IMG/VR virus record: IMGVR_UViG_3300033463_000038 | Span: 32,001-96,000 of that record | Reading direction: 5' to 3' (one strand) | DNA from: a virus | Lineage: Duplodnaviria; Caudoviricetes | DNA: 64,000 nucleotides | In this document: piece after piece, positions 5,585 through 58,596 of the stretch | Position numbering within the stretch: the stretch's first letter is position 1 | How the letters are laid out: each line of letters starts with the position of its first letter | Made by a program: the position numbers and the translations under genes | The notes under the pieces: generated by a model | Seen by the model: the letters and a program-made list of their open reading frames with translations, nothing else | Told to the model about the DNA's origin: nothing | Databases searched by the model: none

Positions 5585-5615
5585 TTTAGTGGTCCTTGTT
5601 TGTTTCTACATGTAT

Positions 5616-5644
5616 AATATAGGTAAATCCAAGAGAAATCTAAA
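5616..5644 (-). promoter_or_regulatory. early promoter
   Basis: TTTAGA-N17-TATATT; ACAAGGACCA leader at 5590-5599. Confidence 0.8.
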
Positions 5645-5676
5645 CCCCAAAATCAAGATTTTTCTTAATTTTTATA

Positions 5677-5705
5677 TTTAGATTTCTCCGAAAAATTCCT
5701 ATATT
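5677..5705 (+). promoter_or_regulatory. early promoter (divergent)
   Basis: TTTAGA-N17-TATATT; ACAAGGACCA leader at 5724-5733. Confidence 0.8.
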
Positions 5706-5736
5706 ATTACTGTAAAACCGTCAACAAGGACCAATT

Positions 5737-42969: not shown

Positions 42970-43689
42970 ATGAAATACATCACTTACGACTCTTTCATCG
43001 ACTATCTCTTCTCAGACGACAGCAAATCGGATACGTACAACAAGCTGACGGCTTGGCTGATCAAGTCGGGAGGTGTCGAGACGTTCCGTATAACGAACGG
43101 AGATTTCAGCATACCAGTCGAGACAGTAGAGAGATTCTCTGTTCCGAACAGTGACTTCGAAAAGTCTCCGTATTCGTACGACTGCAGGCCATCAGTCTCT
43201 AATTCGAACGGAATGATGTCAGAGACAGACAAGACATATCAAGAGATATTCAACATTCCGGCGAAAGAGAACCTATCAGAGTGCAAGTACATCAATTCGT
43301 TCGTACAGAAACAGCAATGGAACGAACTGCTGAAAGAAGATGAGAGTGGTTCAAGTCAGGGCAGCGGTCCTCGTGTCGACAACGACAGCGATGATCCAGC
43401 GTACCAGACTCTCAAAGGAGAAATTCCGTTCAAAGACGAGTACGACGAAGCAGAGTACGACTCCTATGGAATTCCTCTGGACTTTCTCAACAGCGACGAT
43501 CCAGCAGTCATCGCAGAAGAGCTGTTGAAGTTCTACGGCAACAAGATAACGACTCCGATAGGATGCTTGATCGGAGTCTTGAAGAACGATCTAGTGTTTC
43601 CTATCGGGTATATCGACTTCGAGAACGTGAAGCCGTCTACAAGGATCGAGATCAAGTTCGATCCGAGAGGTTTTCTTCAGTTGAAATGA
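42970..43689 (+). CDS. hypothetical virion protein, termini similar to preceding gene
   Basis: N-term YDSF vs FNSF; C-term IGYIDF vs LIALFD. Confidence 0.65.
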   Translation: MKYITYDSFIDYLFSDDSKSDTYNKLTAWLIKSGGVETFRITNGDFSIPVETVERFSVPNSDFEKSPYSYDCRPSVSNSNGMMSETDKTYQEIFNIPAKENLSECKYINSFVQKQQWNELLKEDESGSSQGSGPRVDNDSDDPAYQTLKGEIPFKDEYDEAEYDSYGIPLDFLNSDDPAVIAEELLKFYGNKITTPIGCLIGVLKNDLVFPIGYIDFENVKPSTRIEIKFDPRGFLQLK

Positions 43690-44091
43690 TCAGAGAAGCT
43701 GACGAGCGGTGACGGGCATGACGTAGTAGACCACTCGGCCTTTAGTGCCCTTGTCACGACGGAGAGCGAATCTTGCAGCGCCTCTGATGTAAGCTGGCAG
43801 CTTCTTAGAGTCGTACTTGTCGCACATCACTACGGCAGTGACCTGAGCGACGACGTCGTCATTAGAGAGATTATCCAAAGGTATCTGCTCTTCCCAGAGA
43901 GAGCGGTGCATCGTGATCTCGCAGTTCTTGTCTCCTCGCTGGATAGACTTGAACTCGGCTTCGAACTGCTTATAGAGAATGTCGTTGTTGATCAGCTCGC
44001 ATGCGAAAGCGTCGCAGAATGCGATATCTTCAGCCCAGCTCATCGAGACGAGGAGCGCGAGCGCGAGAATGATAGAGTTGAGCAGTTTCAT
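43690..44091 (-). CDS. exported protein with Sec signal peptide
   Basis: MKLLNSIILALALLVSMSWA|ED; early promoter TTTAGA-N17-TATATT at 44127-44155. Confidence 0.7.
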   Translation of the reverse strand: MKLLNSIILALALLVSMSWAEDIAFCDAFACELINNDILYKQFEAEFKSIQRGDKNCEITMHRSLWEEQIPLDNLSNDDVVAQVTAVVMCDKYDSKKLPAYIRGAARFALRRDKGTKGRVVYYVMPVTARQLL

Positions 44092-44243
44092 TTGAGTTTC
44101 TCCGGTTAAAGTTCTTTTACATATACAATATAAGTATTTTCAAGAGAAATCTAAACAGAAAATTGAGATTTTCTCATTTTTTCTGAATATGAGACGAAAT
44201 ATGCCATTATGCTTAAATTGAGTATATTTGACGTTTGAGCTAT

Positions 44244-44380
44244 TATAAATAACAGGACGAACTGCTGAGAAGTCGAAATAGTCTATATTTTAAACAAAGA
44301 GTTTACGATACGACCCATTGGTGCATCTTTCTTAGCAGTTCCTTTGCACTAGTGGGTCGTATTTCTTTAGGAACTGCTGA
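44244..44380 (+). promoter_or_regulatory. late promoter plus structured 5' leader (switchable pseudoknot)
   Basis: TATAAATA 44244-44251; 18-bp stem 44308-44325/44345-44362; loop complementary to 44259-44272 and to RBS 44369-44380. Confidence 0.7.
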
Positions 44381-45832
44381 ATGGAAAAGTACACAGAATA
44401 TCTCCAATACTCGCTATGGATCAGCGATGTGAAGACGAAGGAGATAAGAGTCGGAAAGAATGGCCGGACAAAATATGATCACGAGTGCATCAGGGGAATT
44501 TGGAACTCTTCTGGATCTCACGGGATCTTTCCAGTCGGAGTGAAGCGCTGCACGTTCGAAGACTACATCGAACTTATCACGACAGGACACTCAGTCAAGA
44601 GAATCCAGAAGATCGAAAATGAAGTGTTCACGTCGAGATTTCTCTTTATCGATCTAGACAACGACAACGGAGAGAACGTGACTGAATATGACCTGGAAGC
44701 GTTGAAACTGATCACTAACAACCGCATCGTGTACTTCCCGTCGACTTCAGGAACGCCCTTCCGGTGGCACTTGTACATCGAGACCGCGAACCCCATGTTC
44801 GTTGTCAAGGATCTGAAACGAGAGACGTTCAAGATCATATCCGAGCTAGAGTCTGTCTGTAAAAGAAAAGTTACATGTGACTCGAAGTGCTACCAGAACT
44901 GGCATCAAGTCTGCTACGGAATGCCGCAGAAAGAGCACTACAAGCTCTCGATCCCCGATGGAACTGAGTTCTTCTGTCACCAGATTCTGAAGCCGAAAGA
45001 CGACAAAGAGACAGTCATCGTCCAAAAGTTCACAGAGTACGTTGAGTTCAGGAGGAAGTCGAATGATAAAGAACAGAAAGAGGTGAGAATCGTACCATAC
45101 AACTCCAAGATGCTAGCGAGAGCTCTCGGAATCGGAGAGCTCCAAGACAAGCCGTTCTCGATCTACCCGCCGTTCACGTACAAGAATCGCGTCAAGGGAG
45201 ACTGGCACATCCGCGAGGGAAACCGGTACAAGACAGCTTGCAACTGGATCCTACACTTAGTCCCGCAGTGGTACAAGTGCAACCTCAAGTACGACATGGG
45301 ATACTCTGTCGAAGATCTAGTTCACACCCTCAAGTGTCTCTGCAGGACTAACTTCGCCAGCTTCGAGACGTTCGACTGGAACTCAGCTCAGCGAGCTCTG
45401 TTCAGCAAGATAAACGCTCTCGATGGAAAGTCGTGGGAAGAGATCGAAGCCGAATCCGAAGCTAAGATCCGCACGTACAGGACCCAGAACTACACTTGGG
45501 ATCTAATGATGAAGCTCAAAGACGAGTTCGCGTACGACGACTGGACGATCGCTTTCCAAGACCGAAAACAGCTCAGAGAAGCGCTGAGAAAGTACAAAGT
45601 CTCGATCAAGACAGTGAAGAAGTATCTCCACGAAGAGGCGGGATTCGACATCGTCATTAAGAACGAGAAGAGAGCAGAGCGATCCGACAAGGGAAAGACG
45701 AAGTTCGACTTCACGAGATACCCTCAAAACGAGAAAGGACAATACTTGATCCCGTCAAGAGAGATCACCTCATACATAAGAAACTTAGCTTCGAAGATGA
45801 AAATAAAGATAAAGTCGGTTAGAGAATGTTAG
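44381..45832 (+). CDS. AEP primase-polymerase-like replication initiator (AEP + PriCT-like + HTH-like)
   Basis: FLFIDLDN (motif I), STSG...RWHLY (motif II), CD.KC..WHQ.CYG (motif III), EGNRY, basic C-terminus RAERSDKGK. Confidence 0.6.
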   Translation: MEKYTEYLQYSLWISDVKTKEIRVGKNGRTKYDHECIRGIWNSSGSHGIFPVGVKRCTFEDYIELITTGHSVKRIQKIENEVFTSRFLFIDLDNDNGENVTEYDLEALKLITNNRIVYFPSTSGTPFRWHLYIETANPMFVVKDLKRETFKIISELESVCKRKVTCDSKCYQNWHQVCYGMPQKEHYKLSIPDGTEFFCHQILKPKDDKETVIVQKFTEYVEFRRKSNDKEQKEVRIVPYNSKMLARALGIGELQDKPFSIYPPFTYKNRVKGDWHIREGNRYKTACNWILHLVPQWYKCNLKYDMGYSVEDLVHTLKCLCRTNFASFETFDWNSAQRALFSKINALDGKSWEEIEAESEAKIRTYRTQNYTWDLMMKLKDEFAYDDWTIAFQDRKQLREALRKYKVSIKTVKKYLHEEAGFDIVIKNEKRAERSDKGKTKFDFTRYPQNEKGQYLIPSREITSYIRNLASKMKIKIKSVREC

Positions 45833-45859
45833 AGAAGGCGAACGAAGTGAGCAAAATAG

Positions 45860-45959
45860 CGTTTGATTTGAATGTGATTTTGTCACATTTTAATCAAACG
45901 TGTTGTTCCCATTTCTCTCTTCTTGAATATATTTTGTCCAGATTAAAATGTGACAAAAT
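45860..45959. repeat. nested inverted repeats, candidate origin
   Basis: Perfect 19-bp IR 45877-45895/45941-45959 and near-perfect hairpin 45860-45900. Confidence 0.8.
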
Positions 45960-46035
45960 TCTGTAAAGGAAACTTTACACTATATCAAGTTCAAAAAATG
46001 AGCTCTATAAATAAACTCAACAAGGAGAATCAACT

Positions 46036-53367: not shown

Positions 53368-53433
53368 ACTTAGAAAGATTGACTGGTACCTAGTTATCAG
53401 TCTCTAAAGCTATTATACTAGGAGATTTTAAAC

Positions 53434-56364
53434 ATGGCTAATACGGCTTACAACGTCCCAGGAGTTGGCTACACTGAAGTCGACAACACTGTGATGCCGA
53501 ATGCTACTCCAGGTGAGGGAATTGGAGCTATCGTTATCAACGCAAACAGAGGATATCCTAACCAGCGTGTTCTCTGTACGTCGATCGACAAGTTTCACGA
53601 GTATTTCGGCACACCAGACGATCCGAATCAATATGGACACTTCGCTGCTCAGGTCTATTTCGAGCAGGGTGGTGCTACTCAGCTTCTCGCTGTGAGAGCT
53701 ACTCAGGGTGATGAAGGCTACGCTCAGATTCAGTACCCTTACACTGACTCTATCGATAAGCAAGATCTAAACAAGATTCATCAGAGACTCGATTTCGTCG
53801 ACAACGGTATGCTTGACAATCTGAAGATCGTCGAAGCTGTTACATCTGGTGATATTTCTCACGATTTGAGTAAACAAGAAGGATTCGAAGGAGCTGGATT
53901 CTCTGACAACGAAGGCGTATTCGAGTATCGAGCTAAGTCGAGGGTCGGAACAGTCAATGATATCTTCAACAGTGCATACGACTACGGCGACATCTACGTC
54001 TATCGTGATACCGAATATGACGACAATGAAGAGGGCAAGGCTTACTACGACGGAACTGGCAAGGCCATGTTCGCTGTTACCAGCGGCGATATCACGCTAA
54101 CGTCTGGCGATACGTTCAACCAGTCTCTCACTTCTGCTTACGCAGTTGGTAATGCTGCTTACTACGAGACTATGATCGCTATCGAGAGCTCTGCATCACT
54201 TTCTGGAGAAACTCTAACTCAGAAGGTTTATGCAAAGAAGATCGAAGGAACGACTGTCAATCTCGATTCTCTCATGGGAGATGCTCAGATGCCTCAGAAG
54301 ACAGACGTCAGTTCTGAAACTGTCAAGAAGCTGACTCTAGTCGACTGGGATGACAGCTTGATCAAGTCGTTCATCGTCAAGAAATCTGAATGGAATCCTG
54401 AAGACGTCAAGGCTCTGCAGTTCACAGAATATGGCACTGCCGACAGCCGTTATCTTCTCGTCAAGGCAGATGGACTCAGCGTTCAGAACTGCAATGACGC
54501 AACAGACTCTGATCTGCGCTACGTAGCAGATGAATACGGAGTTCAGGTAGCGGACATCAACAACGTTAATTACGCTATCATCAAGTATAAGCTCGCAAAG
54601 AGCGAGGATGACGAAATTCAGATCATCTTGGCTGTCGTCGACAAGTCTAAGTATGGCACTCAGCCGTCTGGATCTCATGTCGAATCTCTCGCTGACGCAG
54701 CTCTCGCTTACGAGTACACTTGGTCTCTGTTCAAGGAAGTCAATCAGAAGAAGATCACTATCGTTCCGACTTACGGAAGCCCGATAACGAAGTCTATCAT
54801 CAAGCCGTGGCAGATCGGAGACGTCGATTCTGATATCGATCCGTTGGTCGCTATCTCTTCGACAGAAGTCTTCTCGGATCCGACTGGCATCTGGAAGGAC
54901 GGCTATACACCAGCTTGCGAAACAGATGGCGAACCTGGTAACGGCGACATCGAGTCTTATCAGTCTAACAAGAAGGATCAGCTCGTGATCGCTGCAATCG
55001 GTCCTGGCGAATTCGGTAACGATGTCGGCATCTCCGTCATCACTCCTGAAGCTGCTAAGATTCCTGCTCTCTATGGTCCTAACGCGTTCTCTTGGCTATA
55101 TCGCTATGACGATGAAGACAAGGTTGACGCAGACGGCCTCGACTATACGCAGAATCCGGACAACCTGACTTGGAAGAAAGTCTACAAGATCAACGTCTAC
55201 GTGAAGGCCCACTCTAAGACAGCTGCAGTCTGGGGATTCGGTCTTGATGCTCTGTCAAGCTCTCCAGTCGAATCTTGGCTCGTCTCTAACGATCCTTCTG
55301 CAAAGGACGAGAACGGCAACAGCCTCTGGGCTCCTTACGTGATCAACGGCAAGTCCAACTACATCTACGTATCTAAGAAGTCAGTTGAAGCTGCTAAGGA
55401 TCGCTTCGGCAACTACTCTATGCCGGAAATGACATGGTCTATCTACCAGATGACCGGTGGTACGAATTCTAAGCTGAACAACGTCAAGGAAAAGACGAAG
55501 GGTCTAGATCTGTACAAGAATAGAAAGAAAGCTACGCTTGACTATCTGTTCAACGTCGAACCTATCGAGACTTTCTCTGGAAAGCAGAAGTACATGGCTA
55601 TGCAGACTCGTATCGGTCAGATCGCTTCTGACAGAAAAATGGACCTCGGCATCATCCAGTGTACGTCTAAGGAAGCTAAGACGATCCGTCTCAAGGTTTC
55701 CGAGGGTAAGATGTTCAGCTTCGGCAATGGCTCTTACGTCGCTGGATATGATGACTATGATCGTTACTTCGATCCGTTCACCAGCACTTACGTGATGCTT
55801 CCTAAGTCGGTAGCTGCTGCAGTCGCTTGCTGCTTCTGCGATACCTATCTTCAGCCTTGGATGGCTCCTGCTGGTACGACACAGGGACGTATCGCTTATT
55901 CTGACCGTACGATGACGAGACTCGACGATGATGAATTTGGACAGCTGTTCGACATCAACGTCAATGCTTCTCAGTTCTTCCAGGGCTCTGGCGAGTGCTT
56001 GATGGCACAGAAGACGATGTTGAAGAAGGAGTCTGCTTTCAACAGAATCGACATCAGAAAACTATGCAATTATATTGAGAAGTATCTCGAAGGCAAGCTG
56101 ACTCCTTATCTCTATCGTAAGAACACGTCTACAGAGCGTTCTTCTATGAAGACTGCTGTCGATACCTTCATCGGTCGCATTCAGTCTGCTGGTGGAATCA
56201 TCTGGCGAGACGTCAAGGTCATCCCTGACGAGAAGAACACTCATCTCGTCTACGTGAAGATCAAGTTCATTCCAGCAGAATCGATCGAGAGAATCGAAGT
56301 TGTGCTCGACCTGAACAGAAATACTGGAACTATTACTGCTACTGAGGCAGTAACTCGTCTCTAA
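53434..56364 (+). CDS. tail sheath protein, T4 gp18-like, enlarged
   Basis: PGVGYTEVD, FGTP, GPGEFGN, PWMAPAG..QG, SAFNRIDIRKL, FIPAESIERI. Confidence 0.93.
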   Translation: MANTAYNVPGVGYTEVDNTVMPNATPGEGIGAIVINANRGYPNQRVLCTSIDKFHEYFGTPDDPNQYGHFAAQVYFEQGGATQLLAVRATQGDEGYAQIQYPYTDSIDKQDLNKIHQRLDFVDNGMLDNLKIVEAVTSGDISHDLSKQEGFEGAGFSDNEGVFEYRAKSRVGTVNDIFNSAYDYGDIYVYRDTEYDDNEEGKAYYDGTGKAMFAVTSGDITLTSGDTFNQSLTSAYAVGNAAYYETMIAIESSASLSGETLTQKVYAKKIEGTTVNLDSLMGDAQMPQKTDVSSETVKKLTLVDWDDSLIKSFIVKKSEWNPEDVKALQFTEYGTADSRYLLVKADGLSVQNCNDATDSDLRYVADEYGVQVADINNVNYAIIKYKLAKSEDDEIQIILAVVDKSKYGTQPSGSHVESLADAALAYEYTWSLFKEVNQKKITIVPTYGSPITKSIIKPWQIGDVDSDIDPLVAISSTEVFSDPTGIWKDGYTPACETDGEPGNGDIESYQSNKKDQLVIAAIGPGEFGNDVGISVITPEAAKIPALYGPNAFSWLYRYDDEDKVDADGLDYTQNPDNLTWKKVYKINVYVKAHSKTAAVWGFGLDALSSSPVESWLVSNDPSAKDENGNSLWAPYVINGKSNYIYVSKKSVEAAKDRFGNYSMPEMTWSIYQMTGGTNSKLNNVKEKTKGLDLYKNRKKATLDYLFNVEPIETFSGKQKYMAMQTRIGQIASDRKMDLGIIQCTSKEAKTIRLKVSEGKMFSFGNGSYVAGYDDYDRYFDPFTSTYVMLPKSVAAAVACCFCDTYLQPWMAPAGTTQGRIAYSDRTMTRLDDDEFGQLFDINVNASQFFQGSGECLMAQKTMLKKESAFNRIDIRKLCNYIEKYLEGKLTPYLYRKNTSTERSSMKTAVDTFIGRIQSAGGIIWRDVKVIPDEKNTHLVYVKIKFIPAESIERIEVVLDLNRNTGTITATEAVTRL

Positions 56365-58084: not shown

Positions 58085-58596
58085 ATTAAGATTTTCTGAA
58101 AAATCTATTTAGATTTCTCTTGAAAATACTTATATTATTCTTGGAAAATCAAAGGGAGTTTAAGATGGATAAGGACTATATCAAAACAGCTTACAACGAG
58201 ATCTGCTCGGTCATGTACAACGGAGAAACCCCGGTTATTACCGTTGAATACGGCAGTCCTGAGCTCAATAAGCTTAAGAAAGAGTTTGAGAAAGATGGTT
58301 TCTATTCGACTCTCATCAATCTTGACGACAAGAACGTGGAAGAGATCAGAAAAGACCTCGGCGTTCTGAAAGACACAATTCGTATGCTAGACGCAAAAAG
58401 CGTCGTATTCATCGAATTCCGTGGTGGAAACGAAGCTAAGTACAAAGAAGCTCTCGTCGTAAAGGAGCATCTCAGCGGTTTCTGCATTATCGTCAAGAAG
58501 ATTTGGAAGCAAGAAGGGATCGAAATCGGAAAAATCTAAAAAAAATTAAGATTTTCTGAAAAATCTATTTAGATTTCTCTTGAAAATACTTATATT
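58085..58596 (+). repeat. identical 52-bp direct repeats (58085-58136, 58545-58596) each containing an early promoter
   Basis: ATTAAGATTTTCTGAAAAATCTATTTAGATTTCTCTTGAAAATACTTATATT twice. Confidence 0.95.
58165..58539 (+). CDS. hypothetical early protein
   Basis: GGGAG SD, ATG 58165, between direct repeats. Confidence 0.7.
   Translation: MDKDYIKTAYNEICSVMYNGETPVITVEYGSPELNKLKKEFEKDGFYSTLINLDDKNVEEIRKDLGVLKDTIRMLDAKSVVFIEFRGGNEAKYKEALVVKEHLSGFCIIVKKIWKQEGIEIGKI

Follow-up and report, generated by a model that had tools for sequence, protein, structure and literature searches.

The stretch of DNA analysed here (the window, 64,000 nucleotides) comprises bases 32001–96000 of the 119.7-kb viral record IMGVR_UViG_3300033463_000038, which is estimated to be 47% complete. 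Genes for a family-B DNA polymerase, a helicase, a tail sheath protein, a baseplate wedge protein and NrdD are present, and because of these genes we consider the source of the window to be a large myovirus. Public sequencing runs containing the stretch are bovine gut metagenomes, one of which, from a separate study, holds a relative that is 90–95% identical; a phage GenBank collection searched by protein and by DNA gave no match. Between a leftward gene for a protein of 133 amino acids (aa; 43690–44091) and a rightward gene for a 483-aa protein (44381–45832) lies a space of 289 bp, of which the part from about 44257 to 44380 would form the 5′ leader RNA of the 483-aa gene, a probable primase or replication-initiator gene. 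This leader holds a real, conserved and gene-specific RNA element, consisting of a hairpin whose loop is complementary both to the ribosome-binding site (RBS) of the gene and to a segment that is predicted to form the 5′ end of the transcript.

The hairpin, hp2, occupies 44307–44363 on the + strand, with its 5′ arm at 44307–44325, its loop at 44326–44344 and its 3′ arm at 44345–44363. A preliminary description of this DNA had read an 18-bp stem with two G-U pairs (44308–44325/44345–44362) and a 19-nt loop from the sequence, which a repeat search confirmed; an additional G-U pair (44307/44363) extends the stem to 19 bp. The predicted free energy of hp2 is −30 kcal/mol, and RNAfold places it in both the minimum free energy and the centroid structure. 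The loop contains an anti-Shine-Dalgarno (anti-SD) sequence, of which positions 44332–44343 pair with the RBS segment at 44369–44380 (+ strand). This segment extends from the AGGA Shine-Dalgarno (SD) sequence to position −1 and abuts the ATG at 44381, and the pairing comprises 12 bp with one G-U. Positions 44328–44341 of the same loop pair with a 5′-proximal segment at 44259–44272 (+ strand), hereafter the decoy (an anti-anti-SD), through 14 bp with two G-U pairs. This double match, also claimed previously, held on rereading: the loop-RBS duplex has a free energy of −19.9 kcal/mol, compared with a mean of −6.7 kcal/mol in shuffled loops, and the loop-decoy duplex −20.8 kcal/mol, compared with −8.9 kcal/mol, and none of 1000 shuffled loops was as good in either case. 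All five mismatches in the stem and the two pairings of the window are G-U on the + strand, with no A-C.

Decoy and hairpin are connected by a linker (44273–44306, + strand) containing a conserved core, TTTAGAYCAAAGAWTTYAC, which is unique in the genome, and a small hairpin, hp1 (GTCTA at 44281–44285 and TAAAC at 44291–44295), which is weak in the window copy and predicted in five of six leader families. A short U-rich tail (44364–44368, + strand) lies between hp2 and the RBS segment, and the T-rich run that follows the stem reads TTTCTTT. The 11-mer GGAACTGCTGA has a single occurrence in the record. The decoy/RBS word was also seen in two further + strand copies, at 43324–43333 and 43963–43972 (GAACTGCTGA, exact, and GAACTGCTTA, with one change); both are situated within 1.1 kb upstream, inside other genes, and possibly arose by chance.

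Homologues of the 483-aa protein were taken from IMG/VR, JGI metagenomes and public assemblies, and 19 distinct upstream regions were read. The element is carried by 13 distinct leaders, which comprise four unrelated loop sequence types and two close variants of the window's loop, and all 13 keep the hairpin and both loop pairings. Its geometry is equally constant: in each of these leaders the pairing RBS segment spans 8–12 bp and ends 0–3 nt before the ATG, the decoy begins 4–10 nt after the word ATAAATA, and the linker measures 31–36 nt. Sequence conservation is seen in the stem core GRCCCAYTGG and the linker core, and every family has a U-rich stretch 3′ of the GC-rich stem core, whereas the three segments that pair are hypervariable. 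Across the relatives, cognate loop-RBS and loop-decoy duplexes range from −16 to −32 kcal/mol, compared with −6 to −10 kcal/mol for shuffled loops (0–14 of 1000 as good) and −6 to −15 kcal/mol for the loops of unrelated families. In seven close leaders, 97–98% of alignment cells are paired, against 30–50% when the partner is slid, and for hp2 over all 13 leaders the values are 87.8% and 37–47%. Compensatory changes are present at 9 of the 19 pairs of hp2, and its covariation score of 0.437, compared with 0.25 in shuffles, was reached by none of 500 shuffles.

Individual substitutions follow the same pattern. Between leaders L018 and L028, a G>A change in the decoy is coupled with C>U in the loop. 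Families b and c differ from family a by A>G in the loop. Family b compensates for this with U>C in its decoy and family c with U>C in its RBS; in each, the other partner tolerates the substitution as G-U. Among close relatives, the decoy shows one compensatory pair and several G-U transitions. A strand-neutral tally gave about 19 distinct G-U positions and two A-C positions, both at helix ends, and mismatches in the stems across families are only G-U, with no A-C. Because G-U far outnumber A-C in this tally, we conclude that selection acts on the + strand RNA, as the preliminary description had argued from the window alone. Covariation in homologues, which had been put forward there as a check, is present as well, since the hairpin and both alternative loop pairings are kept with changed letters in the 13 leaders.

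The window itself represents family a, with decoy GAACTGCTGAGAAG, loop TTTCTTAGCAGTTCCT and RBS segment AGGAACTGCTGA. Family b (L011, L014, L021 and L023) has the corresponding segments AATCGCTAAGAA, TTCTTAGCGGTTCCT and AGGAACTGCTAA, and family c (L019 and L020) has the loop, decoy and RBS segment of family b, except that a CU/UC dinucleotide is exchanged between decoy and RBS. The three segments, in the same order, are TTTGCGATACTGACAGA, TTTGTCAGTATCGCAAAATCCC and GGGATTTTGC in family d (L018 and L028), GATGACGCTA, TAGCGTCATCC and GGATGACG in family e (L029 and L030), and GATTTGCGAAACAGAAA, TTTCTGTTTCGCAAATCCT and AGGATTTGC in family f (L003 and L032). In L028, the public gene call begins at an in-frame ATG within the 3′ arm of the hairpin (1201–1234); the alignment with the family places the true start 33 nt downstream of this call. 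The leaders L001, L002, L010, L012 and L027 are plain and short and lack the device. A different leader structure was found about 150 nt before the gene in L024–26, whose protein is 62% identical. Here a 16-bp long-range helix masks the AUG: the AUG region pairs with the 5′ arm of a local hairpin, an arm that has the 3′ arm of that hairpin as its alternative partner. This predicted fold is a second, independent means of masking the start of this gene.

The element occurs once per genome, and only at this gene. A covariance model detected one copy in the present record and one in the record of L003 (G003); in a relative that is 98% complete and lacks the device, it detected none. A strict linker pattern found only the contig of L003; a loose one gave at least 118 chance matches, and none, among the matches listed, was followed by the right kind of hairpin. 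The leader matches no Rfam family: a cmscan of 43000–46000 with E up to 10 returned over the leader only a chance-level match to SpF11 (21.8 bits, compared with a threshold of 54), and no match to int-alpA (RF02996). In the protein tree, a single clade with at least 87% identity among its proteins contains families a, b, c and d as well as leaders without the device, and distant clades again contain families b and d; we conclude that the leader is exchanged as a co-adapted module.

The position of the decoy relative to a promoter word bears on how the element may work. The late-type promoter word ATAAATA (44245–44251, + strand) ends 7 nt before the decoy, and therefore the decoy should be the 5′ end of the transcript. 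ATAAATA resembles the T4 late promoter TATAAATA, and following the T4 late-promoter paradigm we infer a transcript start at about 44257 (PMC3014915). The word has 44 sites in the record, 29 of which are within 60 nt upstream of the start of an open reading frame (ORF) on the same strand, compared with only 0–4 at ORF starts for unrelated control words of the same composition. At 129 nt, the ATAAATA-to-ATG leader described here is the longest among the ATAAATA-to-ORF distances of up to 150 nt. The tail-sheath leader following ATAAATA (53368–53436) is also long, about 70 nt, and contains a hairpin with the loop sequence CCTAGT, a match to ACTAGG at the RBS; this match comprises 6 nt only and may be due to chance.

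The gene downstream (44381–45832, + strand) encodes a 483-aa protein for which no Pfam, PHROG or PDB sequence match was found, and sequence-profile searches of PDB and Pfam gave nothing meaningful. The N-terminal domain of its AF2 model (pLDDT 83) weakly resembles AEP primase-polymerases. The top Foldseek match was the RepB′ primase 3h20 (E 1.3e-3), with LigD PolDom and PrimPols next in order; these matches as a group lie at E 1e-3 to 1e-1. VIA gave a Z of about 6 over residues 5–190, a level common for unrelated folds. Residues D91, D93 and H130, candidates for the acidic DxD and histidine motifs of an AEP catalytic fold, are invariant among homologues, and the gene is located near the polymerase and helicase genes. 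We regard it as a probable DNA-primase or replication-initiator gene.

Our best reading, to which we assign a probability of about 0.6, is that the leader is a conserved translation switch operating via its anti-SD loop. In the predicted OFF state, the loop would pair with the RBS and cover the sequence from AGGA to position −1, so that binding of the 30S subunit would be blocked. In the ON state, the loop would instead pair with the decoy, the first ~14 nt of a transcript from the late-type promoter, and leave the RBS free. The two partners are mutually exclusive because they share a core of 5–10 nt. The decoy duplex is equal to or stronger than the RBS duplex (−20.8 versus −19.9 kcal/mol in the window, −29.5 versus −19.5 kcal/mol in family f and −31.9 versus −17.1 kcal/mol in family d), the decoy is transcribed first and the linker can span the stem; for these reasons, the intact transcript is predicted to be ON. 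The loop-RBS pairing should come into play, and turn the message OFF, only once the 5′ segment is missing, masked or displaced. Our best guess for the trigger is either a factor that recognises the conserved linker, for which the protein encoded by the gene is a candidate, or removal of the 5′ end. The conserved linker itself can be read in two ways: a conserved factor, perhaps the gene's own product, may bind there, in the manner of T4 genes 32 and 43 (PMC3014915), or the linker may make tertiary contacts with the conserved stem core.

The closest parallel to such a switch is the hok mRNA of plasmid R1, in which the 5′-end element tac competes with the mok SD for the anti-SD ucb and the tac-bound form is translatable (PMC9841398). 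The three-way complementarity and the ON/OFF logic are the same (PMC9841398). A 5′ element complementary to the anti-SD is present in 13/13 leaders, its location at the 5′ end being predicted, and an anti-SD complementary to the SD region over 8–12 bp, far above shuffled loops, is likewise present in 13/13. The hok switch is set by the 3′-terminal fbi and 3′ processing, and the open form is then the target of the Sok antisense RNA (PMC9841398). No fbi-like 3′ partner was found here: in seven leaders, the best decoy partner within 2.1 kb downstream was no better than those of shuffled decoys. An antisense promoter sought in the leader was not found either. Also unlike hok, a long, stable hairpin presents the anti-SD in its apical loop, which would make both states pseudoknot-like, and the gene encodes a 483-aa replication-type protein with an AEP-like domain rather than a small toxin.

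Control of a replication initiator through a leader hairpin is known from the repZ/repA genes of IncI-alpha/IncB plasmids (ColIb-P9, pMU720), where the loop forms a pseudoknot with a distal segment beside the RBS. This pseudoknot activates translation, the competitor is an antisense RNA from the opposite strand, and translation of a leader peptide is needed (PMC8053102). The present leader resembles this system in that the loop of a leader hairpin and a competing RNA partner would decide translation of an initiator gene (PMC8053102); it differs in that the loop covers the SD itself (AGGA to −1), repression is predicted and the competitor is in the same RNA. Upstream reading frames that could encode a leader peptide are present in only some families and are not conserved. 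In ColE2, the Rep gene is controlled via its 5′ untranslated leader by the antisense RNA I from the opposite strand (PMC5304414). A primase-type initiator gene, post-transcriptional control through the leader and an exchangeable control module would be common to both (PMC5304414), whereas here the one-sided G-U pattern points to the sense strand only, and an antisense promoter was not found.

Phage T4 offers two further comparisons. In T4 e, soc, 49 and I-TevI, long early transcripts keep the RBS sequestered, and late ones, starting at TATAAATA within the structure, leave it free (PMC3014915). Here too, a late promoter word is fixed relative to an RBS-masking structure, and the position of the 5′ end would set translatability. 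However, the late start in T4 removes an inhibitory strand, whereas the late-type start here would add an activating strand, which longer transcripts would also carry. Genes 32 and 43 of T4 have autogenous translational operators, in which the protein binds near the RBS at a pseudoknot or hairpin (PMC3014915). The present element is similarly a structure in the 5′ leader of a large-myovirus replication gene, with an adjacent conserved sequence as a candidate protein site, but it differs by its anti-SD loop with two RNA partners.

Several observations weigh against the translation switch. The preliminary description had proposed that the decoy frees the RBS and that translation is otherwise blocked; the exclusive pairings behind this proposal are conserved, but we found no route to a decoy-less RNA, as all recognisable promoter words are located upstream of the decoy. 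A TATATTT word between decoy and hairpin was considered as a promoter and tentatively rejected as a general source of decoy-less transcripts, because it has no −35 element, TATATT is not kept in family e and GAAAT-N-TATATT does not recur elsewhere as a promoter-like unit; the word is probably part of a small RNA hairpin. A partner that could occupy the decoy (fbi-like or anti-decoy) was sought both downstream and upstream, and pairing between linker and coding sequence was sought as well; none was found. The loop-RBS pseudoknot also stood only in part, since the pairing is conserved and its same-molecule form with an intact stem is sterically doubtful. In families a, b, c and e, only 2–7 nt separate the base of the 19–21 bp stem from the RBS segment (5 nt from the 19-bp stem in the window), and the AU/GU-rich lower stem must melt at a cost of ~12–16 kcal/mol (~12 kcal/mol in the window), which makes the OFF state in cis marginal; in families d and f the tail is 13 nt long and the stem is shorter. 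Furthermore, close relatives with 90–92% identical proteins have no device at all, and we therefore regard it as dispensable. A purely translational model also leaves the conserved U-rich flank 3′ of the hairpin unexplained. Finally, among assembled contigs of three metatranscriptome runs and one DNA run, an RNA-library contig of 11 kb covers a family-b leader, but neither the starts of transcripts nor their strands can be read from such contigs.

The short tails and the conserved U-rich flank keep two other models of RNA-level control alive. In one of these, the leader hairpin RNA, freed by termination or cleavage, would pair in trans with the RBS of messages from other genome copies. It would thereby act as a copy-number-type brake on the replication gene, comparable to plasmid antisense RNAs but encoded on the same strand, and the differing loop codes would prevent cross-talk between co-infecting relatives. 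With action in trans, the short tail would no longer pose a steric problem; the U-rich flank is common to all families, and the regulated gene resembles plasmid-type primases, genes that are commonly controlled by RNA (PMC5304414; PMC8053102). The mixture of codes a, b, c, d and none in a clade of ≥87% identity, with b and d recurring distantly, is the pattern of a portable specificity module, although phages often exchange modules where no specificity in trans is required. Several points argue against a freed hairpin RNA: a short RNA from the late-type promoter would include its own decoy and inhibit itself, no short transcript was observed, the loops of 17–33 nt contrast with those of 6–7 nt in the clear terminators of this phage, and a terminator scan does not call hp2. 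We consider this model unlikely, and the fuller version of it, in which the dose of the hairpin RNA reports genome copy number and the portable loop codes are incompatibility codes between co-infecting relatives, is doubtful to the same degree. In the other model, the hairpin is solely an intrinsic terminator, and pairing of the 5′ segment with the loop before the 3′ arm has formed would strain its closure and permit read-through. That the stem and its U-rich run could attenuate had been suggested before; the GC-rich stem core, A-rich 5′ flank and U-rich 3′ flank are indeed as in the real terminators of this phage, and the decoy is transcribed first and complementary to the loop. This suggestion fares less well with the loop, which is far larger than in ordinary terminators of the phage and than the 3–8 nt expected of an intrinsic terminator, and with the U tract, which is weak in family f (UUGUUGAU) and partly paired in other families. 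Attenuation alone also leaves unexplained the loop-RBS complementarity that ends 0–3 nt before the ATG in every family, and the decoy overlaps neither arm, unlike classical antiterminators. We regard it as quite improbable, more so than the action in trans.

The complementary segments might also function as DNA. The three copies could be protein-binding sites such as operators or iterons, or, in single-stranded DNA, the hairpin could fold and provide the adjacent primase-like protein with a priming signal. The ssi hairpins of RSF1010 serve RepB′ in this manner, and RepB′ primase is the best structural match of the 483-aa protein. A separate triple repeat resembling protein-binding sites is present just after the gene, and G-T wobble pairs are tolerated in DNA hairpins too. 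However, four unrelated repeat sequences would require repeated changes of specificity while the neighbouring protein stays 87–92% identical, the positions of the sites are fixed relative to the ATG and the promoter word but not to each other, and one-sided mismatches (G-U on the + strand only) are unexpected for double-stranded sites. Of the explanations considered, this is the least probable, and we give it very little weight. An invertible promoter and a miniature inverted-repeat transposable element or target duplication were rejected, as the repeats lie too close together and relatives show this architecture with unrelated sequences.

The triple repeat was observed as follows. The word TCACATTTTAATC forms an inverted pair, with copies ~70 bp apart, just after the 483-aa gene (45860–45959) in the window and most close relatives, and a third copy is located upstream of the gene in relatives without the − strand gene (L001, L010, L011 and L014). 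In L010, all three copies read TTACCTTTTAATC instead. Because this change is concerted, the copies look like places where a single protein binds, and they may be iterons or an origin beside the primase-like gene.

On the other side of the leader is the 133-aa gene (43690–44091, − strand), which has an early-type promoter of its own and whose product has a signal-peptide-like N-terminus. The window, L003, L019, L020, L027 and L032 carry this gene; L001, L010, L011 and L014 lack it, and in these the upstream gene continues straight on. The 133-aa gene behaves as an inserted, moron-like cassette; a search for relatives of its protein in IMG/VR found none. The early-type promoter is sigma-70-like and consists of TTTAGA, 17 nt, TATATT, TGTAAAC and the ribosome site AAGGACCA, or in detail GGTTTAGATTTCTC, 10 nt, CYTATATT, ~6 nt and TGTAAAC, followed by AAGGACCA before the ATG. 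About 14 copies of this conserved unit are present in the record (44108–44156, 5604–5717, 58529–58579 and ~11 more), often in divergent back-to-back pairs, and it probably marks the early promoters of this phage. The copy at 44108–44156 points left and serves the 133-aa gene, not the 483-aa gene. Upstream of ATAAATA is a −10-like word, TATATT (P1, 44223–44228, + strand), with putative promoter activity. P1 is conserved as TTGAGTATATTT or TTGATTATATTT in relatives carrying the − strand gene, and its arrangement has a paralogous counterpart at genome position 4985.

If the translation switch is confirmed, the leader would represent a new, well-conserved family of cis-regulatory RNAs in uncultured large rumen and gut phages, absent from Rfam, that controls a replication gene. 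It would show the hok-type logic of an anti-SD competing with a 5′ end, rebuilt on a hairpin loop. As four unrelated matched sets of loop, decoy and RBS and two close variants share one scaffold, the mechanism can be tested by part swapping, and the matched sets could serve as orthogonal translational switches. The element would also provide a handle on how large phages control the dose of a primase-like initiator.

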